In this document: positions 41,856 to 50,249 of the stretch, one piece after another | Layout: every line of letters begins with the position of its first letter | Position numbering within the stretch: position 1 is the stretch's first letter | Source: Gammaproteobacteria bacterium | GTDB taxonomy: Bacteria; Pseudomonadota; Gammaproteobacteria; DRLM01 | Assembly (NCBI GenBank): GCA_037381915.1 | Contig: JARRQJ010000003.1 | Span: 3,917 to 67,916, forward strand | Length of the DNA stretch: 64,000 nt | Direction: 5' to 3' | Program-made: the position numbers and the translations under genes | The notes under the pieces: generated by a model | Databases searched by the model: none | The model's input: only the letters and a program-made list of their open reading frames with translations | Told to the model about the DNA's origin: nothing

Positions 41856-41881
41856 AATTGGCGGAGAGGGAGGGATTCGAA
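41856..41881. repeat. attL-type direct repeat: displaced copy of the tRNA-Ser 3' end
   Basis: AATTGGCGGAGAGGGAGGGATTCGAA is identical over 26 nt to 50224-50249, which covers the last 23 nt of tRNA-Ser(GGA) plus 3 nt downstream. Confidence 0.85.
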
Positions 41882-42080
41882 TCTTTGATATTTTTCATAT
41901 TATCAATAAGTTACAAAGATACCGTGTCCAGATTATGCCTGCCGCACGACAACAACGCACATACAAGCCATCCTCATTGGAGCTCCGATTGAACAGGAGG
42001 CTCGATGCGACCCACGATACAGCCGAGCCCGCGATATATTCTTATTTGAATAATTATACATGTAGATATATAATCCCCGC

Positions 42081-42401
42081 ATGAAGGATGTCCGATTCTG
42101 TGGTCGCTCTCTCGATGTGCTTCGCGACTTTCCGGCAGACGCGAAGCGTGAAGCCGGTTATCAGTTGGACCGGGTTCAACATGGATTGGAGCCAACCGAT
42201 TGGAAACCGATGCCGTCGATCGGATCGGGTGTTCGGGAGATCCGAATCATGCATGAAGGCCAGTATCGGGTGATTTATGTGGCGAAGTTCGCGGAAGCCG
42301 TCTATATCCTGCATGCCTTCCAGAAGAAAGCCCAGAAGACACGGAAACAGGATATCGATGCAGCAAAGCAGGCGCTGAAGCAGCTTCAAAATGAGGTGTG
42401 A
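42081..42401 (+). CDS. higB: type II toxin, RelE/ParE superfamily (HigB / phage Gp49-like)
   Basis: 106 aa. ...DWKPMPSIGSGVREIRI...YRVIYVAKFAEAVYILHAFQKKAQKTRKQDIDAAKQ matches the Gp49/HigB pattern (F.KK.QKT...I..A). The toxin-first order is typical of hig loci. Confidence 0.8.
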   Translation: MKDVRFCGRSLDVLRDFPADAKREAGYQLDRVQHGLEPTDWKPMPSIGSGVREIRIMHEGQYRVIYVAKFAEAVYILHAFQKKAQKTRKQDIDAAKQALKQLQNEV

Positions 42402-42683
42402 ATGATGACTAAAAATGTCCGGTTTACCAGTGTCTGGGATGCCTTGGAGGATGACCCGGTGCGCCAGGAGAATCTAAAGTTACGTTCTGTGTTGATGATG
42501 GAAATTGCGGAACGAATAAAGGATCAGGGCCTGACGCAAGCTCAAGCTGCTGAAGTGCTGCATATCACCCAGCCGCGAGTCAGCGCCCTTCTACATGGGA
42601 AGATTAACGATTTTCGTCTGGACAGCCTGGTCGACATGGCGCATCGACTAGGAATGCACGTTTCAATTAGCGTGGCCGCATGA
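42402..42683 (+). CDS. higA: XRE-family HTH antitoxin (HigA-like)
   Basis: 93 aa. It starts immediately after the higB stop (TGAATG). HTH GLTQAQAAEVLHITQPRVSALLHGK...F.LDSL. Confidence 0.8.
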   Translation: MMTKNVRFTSVWDALEDDPVRQENLKLRSVLMMEIAERIKDQGLTQAQAAEVLHITQPRVSALLHGKINDFRLDSLVDMAHRLGMHVSISVAA

Positions 42684-42812
42684 GATAACTCCCTCGACGC
42701 AAGGCAACGCATCCAGGCTGTAGCACTAGAGGGATTGGCGTTTAGTGCTGTAGCCGAGGCCTTTAGTGGACTTAGAAGGGACTGATGTGAACAGGAGCAG
42801 CATTAACGGCGC

Positions 42813-47900: not shown

Positions 47901-48637
47901 CGGTGACCGACATGTCTCGTTACAACAGCCTGTTCGATGAGCTGAGCCGTGCTTACGATGTGCGCGGCGAACGGCTCGATCTATTCGGCGACGAATCCGG
48001 CAGTCTCAGTGAGGAAAGCCGCAAGACGCTGAACGAGCTGCTCGCGCTACTCGAACAGGGCGATCAGCAACAAGCACGCGAAAAACTCGAGCAGATCACC
48101 GACTACCGCAATTACCATAACTATGATGTCATCGCATACACCGGGGACGGCCACACCCTGAGCCTCGGCGAAAGCGCCACAGGCTCTGGCGGCCAGACCG
48201 AGACGCCCGCCTACGTGATCCGCTTAGCGGCGATCAGCAACGCTTACGGTCTCAACGACGAGCGCGGTCCGCGCCTGCGTTCCATCGTGCTCGACGAGGC
48301 CTTCTCCAAGATGGATGAGCCACGCACCGCGGAGGTTCTGCGCTTGTTCGCCGATGCTCGCTTCCGCTTTCAGGTAGTGTTTGCCATGCCGACGAAGAAC
48401 GCAGGCGCCTTCCAGCCGTTATTAACTCACAAGTACGTGTTCACCCGCACCAAGGCCACTGTGCCGCACGGCGAATTGCCCGACCGCACGCTGGTGAAGC
48501 TCGAGCTACCCGACCGCGCCGAGACACGCCGCCTGTGGGATCGTCATCTTGAGACGGTCGAGACGCAGGCGCGCCTGGAGTTTGAGGTCGAGAACCCCGA
48601 GCTGCCACCCGATCCCGTCTCCACGTCATCGTCATGA
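44945..48637 (+). CDS. jetC: JetC-like SMC-family ATPase
   Basis: 1230 aa. N-terminal head MWINKVVTLNWGTLPDREYPLGEVTLLAGHTGSGKSTLEDAIQ (Walker A G29-T37). The central region of about 700 aa is E/R/L/Q-rich (coiled-coil-like). Signature-like SGGQTETPAY and Walker B RSIVLDEAFSKMDE lie near the C-terminus. Confidence 0.8.
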   Translation: MWINKVVTLNWGTLPDREYPLGEVTLLAGHTGSGKSTLEDAIQTVMTAAHHGLFAYNPGQDEAKQGARSGKKARSLASYILGADRDRYARPGGAHGYVALVFRPSGEEDGPAFAAVFGVTASLEEVGAGDKVRRVPRELNTQMMLVQAEIGIGDLAERAGSYAFDVTDTKDVYNRLRERFGRDAVREFSSKESYLSYLWGALRGRAGSLDVKVAKRAAQTFSQAMAYKPIRSIDRFVKDEILRPKDVSADVAHLSSLVQQMHKMREDAETINRRTEMLAAILKEGEFAARAWLSRSETLYVKAAGMAHRNSQAIERATTERAKAQKDAGSAEQQYHLLEQQVTNLESLRTQLDRQRGEHPKLSERGQLEDTLERFREDYGRLRQALSGKTQELNTIRDTLRALRNTPAALRVDPVFADAFKQLDQALTLSIGLDSDELHTDIIHVLRHEPEAEGTGEALQRLRDELGESETAIGLIEESIKGEVGLLSLVQEHYFQHASHEKGLVERQRELHAEIRELSEARRVSYLRTASEGFALLQAQLPEAKPRVLCDLVAVRPSEEEWQHAIEGYLGNNRYMLIVEQKYEVEANRLLRQHPAKVAQTHRILQRASEPLRAGSIVECLAVDDPIAQAYLRAAYGDVVKVPDFEILRRTARGVMKDGRSAGGFATGRSWAEDRDLVFGESGRRRRLAARTSELTQLDRQLNDIGNRRSRLQGLKRHLESIRSPNIVETLSNLIHTRIDLIEAKGRLATLDLGDGVELEARYQKVQADYKAALSDKEKTAERRVIAQRKVEEMEKEIVQLRTQQIELNTHRENAYGLLEWLDGASADYSLEAQIDGLNAQASGFDEQMNKALDARVTGHEGNVARHLGGFRDGLYGYNQMADTYQRVLWPEVPLSSVSSQDDFSLLLSMIDETRRQHDRHKNHLLAVAEAELRNLAEQVNNAITANFCQVINRSLQDGRDQIQRLNRALEGYHFNDETYRFHAEAVTDMSRYNSLFDELSRAYDVRGERLDLFGDESGSLSEESRKTLNELLALLEQGDQQQAREKLEQITDYRNYHNYDVIAYTGDGHTLSLGESATGSGGQTETPAYVIRLAAISNAYGLNDERGPRLRSIVLDEAFSKMDEPRTAEVLRLFADARFRFQVVFAMPTKNAGAFQPLLTHKYVFTRTKATVPHGELPDRTLVKLELPDRAETRRLWDRHLETVETQARLEFEVENPELPPDPVSTSSS

Positions 48638-49767
48638 GTGATTTCGCGCCGCATCTGGAAGAGCCCGCAGTACGCGCCTTGCTTGACCGACTCGTCGACC
48701 TCCTTGATCGCACGCCGCTTGCCGAAAGGTCGCGCCCGCCCGGATTTCGTGTGAATCCCCGTGAATTGCCAATATTTTTCGCGATCGAGGATGCCCAGGA
48801 CCGCCGGCTGGTATGGCGCTTCATCGAGCAGTTGCGCGATGCCGGCTGGATTCAGATCGCCGGCAAGCGCCACGGTGCAGGCCAGGCGCCGTGGGAGGTG
48901 TCGCCGCGCCTCACGTTGGTGCCGCAGGCCGAGGGGGCGGTGCGTGCCGCGCTCGGTCGGGAGTTCGTCGAAACCCCCTACGCGCGGCAATGGCGCGAGG
49001 CGGTGCTGGCCGCCGCGCCGCGATTTGCCGGTGATGCCCGGCCGATCAGCCGCACACCCATCGAAGTGCCCGATGCCGCGCCCGAACAGATCATCGATCG
49101 GATCTGCAAGATGGCGGATCTGGCGCCGGGAACCCTCACCCGCGAGGCTAGCGCCCGTTATTTGTGGGGATTATCGAAACTATTAGATAACCGGGTCGAT
49201 GCGGTCAATGCCGCGCTGGGCCGGGCCGTGCTTCGCGAAAAGCCGCTTCTGGTTAACGTGCATGTGCCAAGCGACGCGCTACGCGAGGTGCTGTTCATCG
49301 AAAACGAGGTATCGTACCTGATGGCGATTGCTGCCTGTCCCGCGTGGCGGGCATTGGTATGGAGTTCCGGCTTCATGGCATCCGCCCGACGATTGCGCGA
49401 GCACGGTGGAATGACGATACATGCTACTGCAGCGAGCGCACGTGACGGTCTGTTCCGGCTCGAGATGTTGCTGCAAGGCGCCGAAGAGCTGCCATTCGCC
49501 TTCTTCGGCGATCTCGACTATGCGGGGATGCGGATCTTGCGTCAGTTGCGCGAGAGTTTTCCGTCGATGAGTGCCTGGCATGCTGGCTACCGAGCGTTGT
49601 TGCATCAGCTCGAGCGCGGTGATGGTCACTCGCCTGGGGCCGGCGATAAAGCCGGGCAGATCGATCCCGGGGCGACTGGGTGCATGTATGCCGACGGGAC
49701 AATACTCCCAGCCATTCGAGCATTAGGAAAGTTCGTAGACCAAGAAGGCTACAGTTGGATCGACTAA
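48634..49767 (+). CDS. jetD: JetD-like Toprim-domain nuclease subunit
   Basis: 377 aa. The start overlaps the jetC stop (ATGA). Toprim-type acidic motifs are in the C-terminal half (VLFIENEVSY; FAFFGDLDYAGMRILRQL). Confidence 0.65.
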   Translation: MSDFAPHLEEPAVRALLDRLVDLLDRTPLAERSRPPGFRVNPRELPIFFAIEDAQDRRLVWRFIEQLRDAGWIQIAGKRHGAGQAPWEVSPRLTLVPQAEGAVRAALGREFVETPYARQWREAVLAAAPRFAGDARPISRTPIEVPDAAPEQIIDRICKMADLAPGTLTREASARYLWGLSKLLDNRVDAVNAALGRAVLREKPLLVNVHVPSDALREVLFIENEVSYLMAIAACPAWRALVWSSGFMASARRLREHGGMTIHATAASARDGLFRLEMLLQGAEELPFAFFGDLDYAGMRILRQLRESFPSMSAWHAGYRALLHQLERGDGHSPGAGDKAGQIDPGATGCMYADGTILPAIRALGKFVDQEGYSWID

Positions 49768-50223
49768 TATTCGCTGGGAGTCAACGAATATCGGGAAAGG
49801 GGAATATCCGAGAATTTCAATTTCAACCAGAGTGTCGCCTCAGCGGTCCGCTTGTACACCTCAGTAACCTGGACTGCTTTTCTATTTCCGATCTCTGCTG
49901 CCGGACGTGTGTACACCGAAGGATGGTGGAAAGAGGTGCGCGCGCCAGGCCGTGGTGGACACATGTGAGCTGCTAAGGCCTGTATAAAGTCGCTGAAGTT
50001 ATCGTGTGAATTACTAAATCCGGAATTGGCCAAGCTCTCTAGACTAACCATCCACGCCGACCCGAGAACGATGTCACAAATCGTGTCTAACTGGACATGA
50101 AAAACAGCGGTGCCCGTAGTTTGATGGATCGTTAACTGTCTATCCTGACAGCAGTCTTCTCTAGTAAGGAATCAACCGTATCGAGGGTTCATGATGTCTA
50201 TTAATTAATTGTTTTTATTATAT

Positions 50224-50249
50224 AATTGGCGGAGAGGGAGGGATTCGAA
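50224..50249. repeat. attR-type direct repeat inside and just past the 3' end of tRNA-Ser
   Basis: Identical 26-mer to 41856-41881. Confidence 0.85.

Follow-up and report, generated by a model that had tools for sequence, protein, structure and literature searches.

The window, the whole 64-kb stretch of DNA analysed here, holds a single tRNA gene according to ARAGORN, an intact tRNA-Ser(GGA) on the minus strand at 50227–50317, and two exact copies of the 26-mer AATTGGCGGAGAGGGAGGGATTCGAA, at 41856–41881 and 50224–50249 (both on the minus strand). Identity between the two copies ends precisely at both 26-mer boundaries, no further copy was found in the window at up to three mismatches, and 100 shuffles yielded no match. 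Because the tRNA-Ser(GGA) occupies 50227–50317, the right repeat is tRNA 3′ end plus trailer: it runs from the T-loop through the 3′ half of the T-stem, the 3′ acceptor strand and the discriminator base to CCA (23 nt), followed by 3 nt of trailer. A sequence-only reading of this DNA had proposed a perfect 26-bp duplication of the tRNA-Ser(GGA) 3′ end, with the second copy spanning T-loop to CCA of an intact tRNA plus 3 nt, and both observations hold; the alternative that the 26-mer is a dispersed repeat finds no counterpart elsewhere in the window. The distal (left) repeat is interpreted as the tRNA-Ser 3′ end (23 nt) that the host had originally, with 3 nt of trailer, pushed away by an insertion, and a single copy bridges both flanks in two contigs that lack the island (L084 and L085). 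The proximal (right) copy, by the same reading, would now be an element-supplied tRNA 3′ end. The integration target, tRNA-Ser(GGA), has the same sequence in the window, the empty-site contigs and the sister species, and partial tRNA-Ser 3′ copies of this kind bound other integrated elements elsewhere. In the metagenomes examined, the tRNA region is common to many organisms and reaches a depth above 1000x, and assemblies break there.

Six ORFs lie between the repeats, all assigned to a toxin–antitoxin pair or to Wadjet, and all on the plus strand. A 106-aa toxin of the Gp49/RelE superfamily (42081–42401; PF05973, E 5e-26, with a weak TIGR02683 RelE/ParE match) is followed by a 93-aa HTH_37/Xre-type antitoxin (42402–42683; PF13744, E 3e-23), whose start at 42402 directly abuts the toxin stop codon ending at 42401; a small toxin gene followed by an HTH antitoxin gene is the layout of a type II toxin–antitoxin system. 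HigB of the PF05015 type was considered for the toxin and rejected, as it has no PF05015 match. The remaining genes form a complete type I Wadjet operon in canonical order, overlapping or abutting one another: jetA (42813–44267, 484 aa; PADLOC JetA1, E 8e-102; PF18982), jetB (44260–44955, 231 aa; JetB1, E 9e-59; PF13835; its start taken from the gene call on the JGI contig), jetC, an SMC-like ATPase (44945–48637, 1230 aa; JetC1, E 8e-274 over the full length; PF13555 and PF13558), and jetD (48634–49767, 377 aa; JetD1, E 1e-92 over the full length; PF09983). The earlier description of the six accessory genes as higBA and a jetABCD-like operon therefore stands for their content, with the operon now placed in Wadjet type I, whereas ‘higBA’ is a loose name for a toxin that falls in PF05973 and not PF05015. 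The cargo is expected to stabilise the cassette and to act against plasmid DNA entering the cell. A non-coding spacer (49768–50077) separates jetD from the proximal arm; its ORFs have no Pfam match and it contains no integrase remnant.

No recombinase ORF lies inside or next to the island, as had been claimed from the sequence. Pfam searches of all island and neighbouring ORFs found none, an HMM for tyrosine recombinases run on every stop-to-stop ORF of at least 30 aa across the whole window returned only noise, and so did tblastn with family integrase fragments against the window; the window-wide search covered tyrosine recombinases, and serine recombinases were covered by Pfam on the island and neighbouring ORFs. 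The genes flanking the insertion site are syntenic core genes of the sister species, and they contain no recombinase domains. HMM and tblastn searches detected no integrase remnant in the island, including its expected place at 41940–42080. The island thus departs from an integrase-made tRNA island with an integrase gene inside the element, by Pfam, local HMM and tblastn alike. With all six ORFs assigned, it has no integration, excision or conjugation genes, and no cognate integrase was found in the 64-kb window or tied to this genome.

Both inner edges of the island are AT-rich, as the sequence-only reading had stated, and they are recognisable attachment-site arms. For comparison, we defined a tRNA-Ser ‘CGTGTC-arm’ cassette family by the succession of a 23-nt tRNA-Ser 3′ end, 41 nt and CGTGTCCAGATCGTGTCT. 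On the distal side, the repeat is followed by a diverged, element-derived continuation of the T-stem, TCTTTGATA (the tRNA has CCCTCGGTA, and the consensus over 76 family modules is CctTCGgTgTTT), and then by an AT-rich spacer (41882–41902). Since the sequence directly after GAA differs between elements, we would place the crossover in the T-loop. An IHF-like site, TATCAATAAGTTA (41901–41913, plus strand), is a perfect match to WATCAANNNNTTR, the established consensus of IHF sites; the family consensus at this position is TTTCAAt.gcTTa. The conserved distal-arm motif TCAATAnnTTnCAAAGnnAnCGTGTCCAGAT and a second half-site occupy 41903–41940 (plus strand), and the 18-mer at 41923–41940, CGTGTCCAGATTATGCCT, has three mismatches to the family CGTGTCCAGATCGTGTCT and is spaced 64 nt from where the tRNA 3′ copy starts, an offset found in the window and in 75 further modules. 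On the proximal side, an arm-type site, ATCGTGTCTAACTGGACA (50080–50097, plus strand), shares its motif with sites upstream of the tRNA end in three relatives (L211, L222 and L235). Only the second copy of the relatives' pair is present; the first is missing, since the match between the window and its sibling contigs breaks off exactly at 50078. A degenerate further arm-site copy, TGTCTATCCTGACA (50137–50150, plus strand; direct repeat D4), and an inverted copy of the tRNA variable-arm/T-stem segment, CAACCGTATCGAGGGTTC (50173–50190, plus strand; inverted repeat I1), follow; the latter is 89% complementary to 50247–50264, and the island's inverted T-arm box has one mismatch. A TTGTTTTTAT box at 50209–50218 (plus strand), conserved in family proximal junctions, completes the set of ATCGTGTC-type site, inverted ACCGAGGGTT box and TTGTTTTTAT box. 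The island retains both attL and attR, the core repeats being perfect and the arms recognisable against the family consensus but partly eroded.

Pattern scans for the distal motif gave matches in 8, 26 and 69 loci, and the rigid module (motif plus 64-nt offset) recurs in 94 other loci, 25 in representative genomes and 69 in metagenomes. Modules often stand in tandem arrays, with up to four in 8 kb (L216). The complete cassettes (n = 23) measure 1.17–8.37 kb and none contains an intact cognate integrase; as complete cassettes are visible only within 8-kb blocks or short contigs, this sample is biased against larger, integrase-bearing elements. Proximal-arm features, which lay outside the search pattern, were found in 15–20 of the 23 cassette ends: CGTG[TG]C in 20 proximal junctions, (T)ACCGAGGGTT about 55 nt before the tRNA end in 17, and the TTGTTTTTAT box with at most two mismatches in 19. 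The complete cassettes carry toxin–antitoxin or defence genes; the cargo ORFs are PIN, FitA, GNAT/TacA, ParDE, AbiE, HigBA, Gp49/HTH_37, AAA_15+UvrD and AAA+S8, and a single one of 61 is a recombinase, short and unrelated. The attachment arms are common to elements in other classes and phyla, including elements at genes for other tRNA-Ser isoacceptors. The typical member of this family is a small integrase-less cassette with both arms, and such cassettes accumulate in tandem beside tRNA-Ser in uncultured sediment bacteria. The earlier verdict that the element is either immobilised or dependent on an integrase supplied in trans goes as far as the evidence does.

The cognate integrase of the family can be named: it is of the Arm-DNA-bind_2 type, about 388 aa long, and is intact only in rare relatives. 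In L287 and L254 the gene order is direct repeat, distal arm, S24 peptidase gene, orf140 and int; the integrase of L287 is intact (388 aa), and the L254 copy ends with the contig after about 214 aa. Other members retain pieces of it, namely an 88% identical remnant with in-frame stops in L211, C-terminal fragments only, beside repeats, in L178 and five metagenome contigs, and copies split by or adjacent to an IS in L219 and L218, showing that some members (L211, possibly L214) decayed from integrase-bearing ancestors. Close full-length relatives of the integrase are common, and one with 91% identity sits in an ICE-like backbone (L312). As regards attachment sites cognate with a same-site ICE or IME, the distal arm lies beside the intact integrase of L287, and the att sites of L312 fall outside the 21 kb read.

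In two contigs from the same salt-marsh population (L084 and L085), tRNA-Ser is joined directly to the sequence left of 41856 with one 26-mer at the junction; each contig aligns by BLAST in two segments sharing exactly 26 nt, with flank identity of 99.4–100%. This is the precise junction predicted for close relatives, and together with the exact repeats it upholds the proposed footprint of site-specific integration at a tRNA 3′ end. In the sister species, contigs L086 and L087 keep the synteny and have no insert at the same tRNA-Ser site. In runs X1 and X8, Logan contig depth is 20–35x over the flanks and 6–7x over the island, and run X10, with flanks at 4–6x, has almost no island sequence; as the island contigs lie below flank depth, the island is present in only a part of the population. 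Flank SNPs consistently separate empty from filled contigs (two empty versus three filled), which favours stable lineages over frequent excision, and island copies differ by about 0.2%, much like the flanks, so that the insertion is not very recent. Among the assembled contigs, which were searched in place of raw reads, neither a circular (attP) junction nor an empty site on an island-type flank haplotype was seen. In L081, where the tRNA body would be expected beside the island, another family distal arm begins: a second cassette is inserted beside the island in part of the population, and insertion at this site is ongoing.

Given that integrase-less cassettes are the family norm and that a cognate integrase is present in relatives and in an ICE-like element, we hold with moderate confidence that the island is a CIME-like, non-autonomous cassette, inserted site-specifically at tRNA-Ser(GGA) by an integrase most probably supplied in trans. 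The cassette would consist of 8,342 bp (41882–50223) plus one 26-bp repeat, keeping attL and attR and having no integrase and no transfer gene. Site-specific recombination would have brought it into the 3′ end of tRNA-Ser(GGA), the likely enzyme being a heterobivalent tyrosine integrase (Arm-DNA-bind_2 / SAM_3 / Phage_integrase, about 388 aa) as in L287, with the crossover in or beside the T-loop ATTCGAA. The element's own copy of the tRNA 3′ end would then complete the gene, the host's original end becoming the left repeat, and the integrase would most probably have come from an integrase-bearing sibling or from an ICE using the same site. Partial erosion of the arms and the linkage of island presence to flank SNPs make present-day mobility doubtful, and the island may no longer move efficiently.

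It is also conceivable, and in our judgement a serious if lesser possibility, that the island is a decayed autonomous element, which lost its own integrase module (S24 peptidase gene, orf140 and int) by deletion or cargo replacement and persists as a fixed, immobile relic; the polymorphism would then mean that other lineages have simply kept the ancestral empty allele, perhaps with some shuffling by homologous recombination in the flanks. Graded integrase loss among relatives, from the intact gene of L287 through the stops of L211 and the fragments of L178 to the IS of L219 and L218, agrees with such a history, as do the eroded arms with a proximal arm truncated at 50078, the linkage of island state to flank SNPs, and a divergence between island copies that matches the flanks and speaks for an insertion that is not very recent. 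However, the island retains no integrase remnant at all, even at 41940–42080, each of the 1.2–2.5-kb array cassettes that still keep both arms would need its own complete loss, and a second cassette has inserted beside the island in part of the population. A scenario without any integrase, with the site acting as a recombination hotspot where deletion between the 26-bp repeats turned the filled allele into the empty one, or where homologous recombination of the flanks alone brought the island in, appears improbable: direct-repeat deletion would likewise leave exactly one 26-mer and the SNP linkage is compatible with allele exchange, but the origin of the repeats is then unexplained, the inner edges are conserved arms found in other classes and phyla and at other tRNA-Ser isoacceptors, and the sister species lacks the island at this site. 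That the repeat is a product of chance or of faulty assembly, for instance a chimeric join at a conserved, deeply covered tRNA where assemblies break, is scarcely credible in view of the failure of all 100 shuffles and the independent assembly of the filled arrangement in several samples (both junctions in L081, the left in L082, the right in L089) and of the empty arrangement in two other samples.

The CIME-type reading has its closest precedent in the CIMEs related to ICESt1/ICESt3 of Streptococcus thermophilus, which have intact attL and attR and no integration or transfer genes (ICEberg 2.0, PMC6323972), are thought to derive from or parasitise a same-site ICE, and undergo tandem accretion with other elements (PMC6323972). 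The island shares with them the paired attachment sites, the lack of integration and transfer genes, and tandem accretion. The Firmicutes CIMEs of the ICESt1/ICESt3 type insert at the 3′ end of fda, whereas the island differs in its tRNA-Ser 3′-end target, its uncultured gammaproteobacterial hosts and its defence and toxin–antitoxin cargo; its putative link to an ICE comes from a single integrase homologue (L312), and the att sites of L312 lie beyond the sequence read. Tycheposons of Prochlorococcus are tRNA-targeted, with newer integrations pushing older ones outward, and their islands contain partial tRNAs, fragmented integrases and remnants, cultures being heterogeneous for presence and absence (bioRxiv 10.1101/2020.12.28.424599). 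Targeting of tRNA genes, outward displacement of older elements, partial tRNAs, broken integrases and remnants, and presence/absence heterogeneity recur here, but tycheposons were screened and counted as integrase-carrying, whereas the integrase-less form is common in our family, and the host group differs. P4-like satellites and other small defence islands integrated at tRNA genes encode their own integrase together with replication or hijacking genes, neither of which the island has. It resembles them in small size, a tRNA 3′-end location and anti-MGE defence cargo (see also PMC13586616). The likeness to type I Wadjet, predicted from four genes in canonical order with full-length PADLOC matches, concerns the cargo and not the mechanism of mobility.

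A further parallel is with integron gene cassettes. These are small and recombinase-less and often encode toxin–antitoxin systems, and a tyrosine recombinase encoded outside them lines them up in tandem at a single site. The island family likewise consists of small recombinase-less units, in tandem, with toxin–antitoxin cargo, but it differs from integrons in having neither an attC hairpin nor an intI and attI platform, and its sites resemble those of lambda, combining a tRNA-derived core with an IHF-like site and arm-type repeats. We raise only tentatively, as a possibility we rather doubt, that the island is one unit of a tRNA-based counterpart of the integron, in which ICE-borne Arm-DNA-bind_2 integrases would service a large pool of 1.2–8 kb recombinase-less cassettes. 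Each cassette would consist of two att arms and a toxin–antitoxin or defence module, and serial insertion at tRNA-Ser genes (GGA, TGA, CGA and GCT) would build exchangeable defence arrays, from sediment Gammaproteobacteria to phyla such as Binatia.

The island is a true, precise insertion that is polymorphic in a natural population, and it indicates that a defence system of the size of Wadjet can travel on an element without a mobility gene of its own. With the attachment arms and the probable integrase identified, a direct test becomes possible. If the family pattern holds, tRNA-Ser genes would act as loading docks for shared defence and toxin–antitoxin cassettes whose integrases are encoded elsewhere, and surveys of defence islands that depend on an integrase would overlook such exchange.

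The sequence-only reading had described a perfect 26-bp duplication of the tRNA-Ser(GGA) 3' end around the island, and exact matching together with ARAGORN confirmed it. The 26-mer AATTGGCGGAGAGGGAGGGATTCGAA occurs at 41856-41881 and 50224-50249, its sole copies in the window with up to 3 mismatches allowed, and 0 of 100 shuffles gave a match. The single tRNA in the window is tRNA-Ser(GGA) (50227-50317, minus strand; ARAGORN), and the right-hand 26-mer comprises its T-loop, T-stem 3' half, acceptor 3' strand, discriminator and CCA (23 nt) plus 3 trailer nucleotides, with identity lost sharply at either end of the repeat. 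The source of the window population is a salt-marsh metagenome, and a homology search with the flanking rhomboid protein recovered a 100% identical protein encoded on two contigs from two JGI samples (L084 and L085). Both run from PutA through tRNA-Ser(GGA), a single 26-mer and the left flank to the rhomboid gene, with no intervening sequence. Each aligns to the window in two BLAST segments that overlap by exactly 26 nt at 99.4-100% identity; for L084, query 1-7175 corresponds to window 57398-50224 and query 7150-8516 to window 41881-40515. The empty site that had been proposed as a check, with tRNA-Ser joined directly to the sequence left of 41856, is thus present in L084 and L085, and supports the earlier reading of site-specific integration at the tRNA 3' end. 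In the sister species (L086, L087), the tRNA is identical, including the ATT trailer, and the site is empty. The insertion was site-specific and conservative, with element-borne sequence restoring the tRNA. Synteny in representative genomes was discarded as a source of empty sites, since the identity of rhomboid relatives reaches only 70% there and no tRNA-Ser lies near these best matches.

The filled site was assembled independently in other samples, with both junctions on L081, the left on L082 and the right on L089, and the island junction 36-mer pattern is present in L081 and L082; the exact junction 36-mer had no match in metagenome_contigs, a collection without these marsh samples. The depth of Logan contigs shows mixed filled and empty populations: flanks reach 20-35x and the island 6-7x in sequencing runs X1 and X8, and in X10 the flanks stand at 4-6x with the island almost absent. 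Between 40529 and 41794 in the window, flank SNPs are linked to island state. The empty contigs L084 and L085 have 8 flank alleles in common, none of them in the window, and 41665A and 41794C are common to the filled contigs that cover the junction-adjacent positions. Filled and empty flanks are 99.96-100% identical on the right, but only 99.4% on the left. Logan joints from 41877 or 41882 to 50227 were rejected as empty sites because they skip 8349 or 8344 nt, not 8368, and have 19-24-nt sides and depths unlike those of the flanks. In X1 and X8, a 19-24-nt partial tRNA 3' copy abuts a full tRNA-Ser at depths of up to 125x, unlike the host organism; these joints probably represent minimal scars, or partial copies in tandem, from other members of the community. 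Three tRNA- or arm-like fragments also lie in the left flank, at 41667-41687, 41706-41730 and 41786-41806. The first resembles the start of the distal arm (81% to 41881-41901), the second is a degenerate tRNA-Ser 3' end, TCGGCGGAGAGAGTGAGGACCC, and the third is a plus-strand hairpin resembling a T-arm. The empty-site contigs contain every one of them, but they are unalignable in the sister species; they may be scars of older insertions.

The accessory content is as the earlier reading had it, a toxin-antitoxin pair and a jetABCD operon. A Gp49-family toxin gene (PF05973; 42081-42401) abuts an HTH_37 antitoxin gene (42402-42683), followed by jetA (42813-44267), jetB (44260-44955), jetC (44945-48637) and jetD (48634-49767), each a full-length match to a PADLOC type I Wadjet model. 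No further credible ORFs lie between the repeats, and Pfam assigns no family to the small ORFs at its right end. The coding part of the island has host-like G+C, and composition bore out the AT-rich inner edges. The claim that no recombinase lies inside or beside the island also held. Pfam found none in the island or in neighbouring genes, which are a rhomboid protease and a LysR regulator on the left and PutA, a cytochrome c and a large AAA_16/TPR/BTAD regulator on the right (the latter from Pfam labels on contigs with the same genes). A tyrosine-recombinase HMM, built iteratively from integrases in the fetched loci, gave only noise against every stop-to-stop ORF of at least 30 aa in the 64-kb window, as did tblastn of integrase fragments of the relevant family against the window. 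The flanks are syntenic core of the sister species (82-89% DNA identity), and their genes there have no recombinase domain.

The island belongs to a family of cassettes with lambda-like arms. Directly after the left repeat, the distal arm, which forms the left inner edge, starts with TCTTTGATA, a diverged continuation of the tRNA (CCCTCGGTA in the tRNA itself). It includes a predicted IHF-like site with a perfect consensus match (TATCAATAAGTTA, 41901-41913), after which it reads CAAAGATACCGTGTCCAGAT. Rfam gave only sub-threshold chance matches on the left junction. In the genome collection, contig L178 has the same 26-mer and then a clearly homologous 75 nt; a degenerate pattern from the window and L178 led to 8 loci, and the 20-nt core ANCGTGTCCAGATCGTGTCT to 26 loci in species-representative genomes and 69 metagenome contigs. 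The core-bearing representative genomes are nearly all uncultured Gammaproteobacteria, with two Binatia and one Filomicrobium. An 18-mer of the distal arm has an offset of exactly 64 nt from where the partial tRNA-Ser 3' copy starts, in the window as in 75 further modules, each consisting of such a copy and a distal arm. The bases after ...ATTCGAA vary by element (CCTTC, TCTTC, CATCC, CTTTC), a pattern that would suit a crossover within the T-loop or next to it, the two halves of the T-stem being putative core-type sites.

The proximal arm, next to the tRNA, has conserved features outside the search pattern, which were counted where the other end of the cassette is visible. Repeats of the ATCGTGTC(T/C)AAC type lie 80-180 nt before the tRNA end at 20 of 23 junctions, a TTGTTTTTAT box is present at 19 of 23, and an inverted copy of the T-stem/variable arm, (T)ACCGAGGGTT, lies about 55 nt before the tRNA end at 17 of 23. 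On the side of a first module that faces the host flank, they are found far less often. In the window, where the set is complete, the repeats correspond to 50080-50097, the inverted copy to 50173-50190 and the box to 50209-50218. The conserved inverted half (T)ACCGAGGGTT may serve as an additional core-type site or have an effect on the tRNA trailer. In the window, 50173-50190 in the arm and 50247-50264 in the tRNA variable arm/T-stem form an 18-nt inverted repeat with 89% complementarity. In other phyla, partial tRNA-Ser 3' copies that end exactly at ...ATTCGAA are widely distributed (L091-L210). The copies in Acidobacteriota and Opitutaceae come with conserved arms of their own and with integrases close by, so the tRNA-Ser 3' part is a common target of several element families. 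Viral contigs matched neither the island junctions nor the family core or arm, and thus give no sign of phage origin.

Integrase-less cassettes with both arms are the rule in this family. The 23 complete cassettes span 1.17-8.37 kb, that of the window being the largest, and their partner tRNA-Ser isoacceptors, which include GGA, TGA, CGA and GCT, have the 3' end in common. The tRNA-Ser(TGA) of L212 was rejected as the proximal junction of its cassette because the native terminator is retained. Tandem arrangements of modules are frequent: L216 has four in 8 kb, L220 has three, and in L226 a pair of 1.4-kb cassettes precedes tRNA-Ser(GGA). Cargo throughout is toxin-antitoxin or defence (PIN/FitA, GNAT/TacA, ParDE, HigBA, Gp49/HTH_37, AbiE), with CBASS (L215), AAA_15 with UvrD, and an AAA ATPase with an S8 peptidase besides; one 5-kb cassette has an AAA_15 ATPase gene beside a UvrD-like helicase gene, a Gabija-like pair (L225:683-4248). 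Among 61 cargo ORFs there is a single recombinase, an unrelated and short protein (204 aa) encoded in L214.

A candidate integrase came from within the family. L211 has an integrase remnant with two in-frame stops inside its cassette, and L287 encodes, after the direct repeat, distal arm, a 5'-shortened S24 peptidase gene and orf140, an intact integrase of 388 aa with 88% identity to this remnant and an Arm-DNA-bind_2-type N-terminus. L254 has the same order, with the integrase cut by the contig end after about 214 aa. Public data hold 1607 relatives at E <= 1e-30, and nearly all of the 120 listed are full-length; an earlier impression that all homologues are short was an artefact of word-based retrieval, a longer query having found mostly full-length proteins among the matches listed. 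A 91% identical protein, P0253, is encoded in an ICE-like backbone (ParB_N, DUF2857, AcaB, StbA, RadC) in L312 with mercury and metal-efflux genes as cargo, its att sites lying outside the 21 kb read. Related integrases occupy the canonical place next to tRNA-Ser(GGA) in L218, L219, L240 and L242, with their own paired arm repeats (GCGGACCAAAAAACGGACCAA) between integrase stop codon and tRNA. In L219 (5877-10450) an IS21-like insertion (rve and AAA_22) interrupts the gene, and in L218 (8741-10297) a C-terminal fragment alone lies beside an rve transposase gene, adjoining the tRNA. L242 (1-11567) comes from JGI sample 3300057030, that of the empty-site contig L084, and represents another organism with another arm-site type. 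Besides an intact Arm-DNA-bind_2 integrase of 380 aa, its element encodes a second recombinase, a PhdYeFM antitoxin and a type I restriction-modification system, and about 130 nt beyond the tRNA lies a displaced copy of the tRNA 5' part without the last 23 nt. The integrase fragment of L178 was not accepted as the cassette's own: it is located outside the cassette and its arm repeats differ (ATGACGC), so it belongs to a neighbouring element.

We infer that an L287-type integrase carried out the recombination of the island, and it would have acted in trans, as suggested mostly by family-level evidence. Supply in trans is supported by the prevalence of integrase-less two-armed cassettes, by their stacking in arrays and by a second cassette beside the island in L081. 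There (8690-8750, equivalent to window 50216-50257 and beyond), CCCTCGGTCTTTTATTATTTATCAATA takes the place of the tRNA body directly after the right end of the island and the 23 nt of tRNA. Another distal arm of the family starts with this sequence, which means that in part of the same population a second cassette entered the tRNA later and lies between it and the island; loose contig ends in other runs did not show it. Present-day mobility of the island is doubtful. The second distal half-site in the window is mutated (TTATGCCT versus TCGTGTCT in the family), with the erosion at 41934-41940. Between 50078 and the tRNA, sibling contigs in X2 and X9 agree with the window, but upstream (50077-50080) they read ...AAAAAATCGTGTCCA or ...AAAAAATCGTGTCT. 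Sibling elements in the community thus have this proximal arm in common and carry a two-copy arm site, of which the window island keeps only the second copy; its proximal arm is therefore truncated. The linkage to flank alleles adds to this doubt, and no circle (attP) junction, expected as ...TTGTTTTTATTATATAATTGGCGGAGAGGGAGGGATTCGAATCTTTGATATT..., was seen in assembled contigs.

The empty site and the lack of a recombinase support the reading of an integrase-less island that is either immobilised or dependent on an integrase in trans. The island is an integrase-less, CIME-like defence island at a tRNA, a kind already known. Cis-mobilizable elements (CIMEs) keep their att sites and lack integration and transfer genes (ICEberg 2.0, PMC6323972); the island fits this definition, although its required connection with a helper ICE has been established only in part. 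It resembles the tycheposons of Prochlorococcus (bioRxiv 10.1101/2020.12.28.424599) in targeting a tRNA and growing by accretion. Integron cassettes are alike in outline, but the island's sites are of a different kind. Literature searches turned up no description of the cassette family, a weak indication that it is new. Its family context is of more interest than the island itself.
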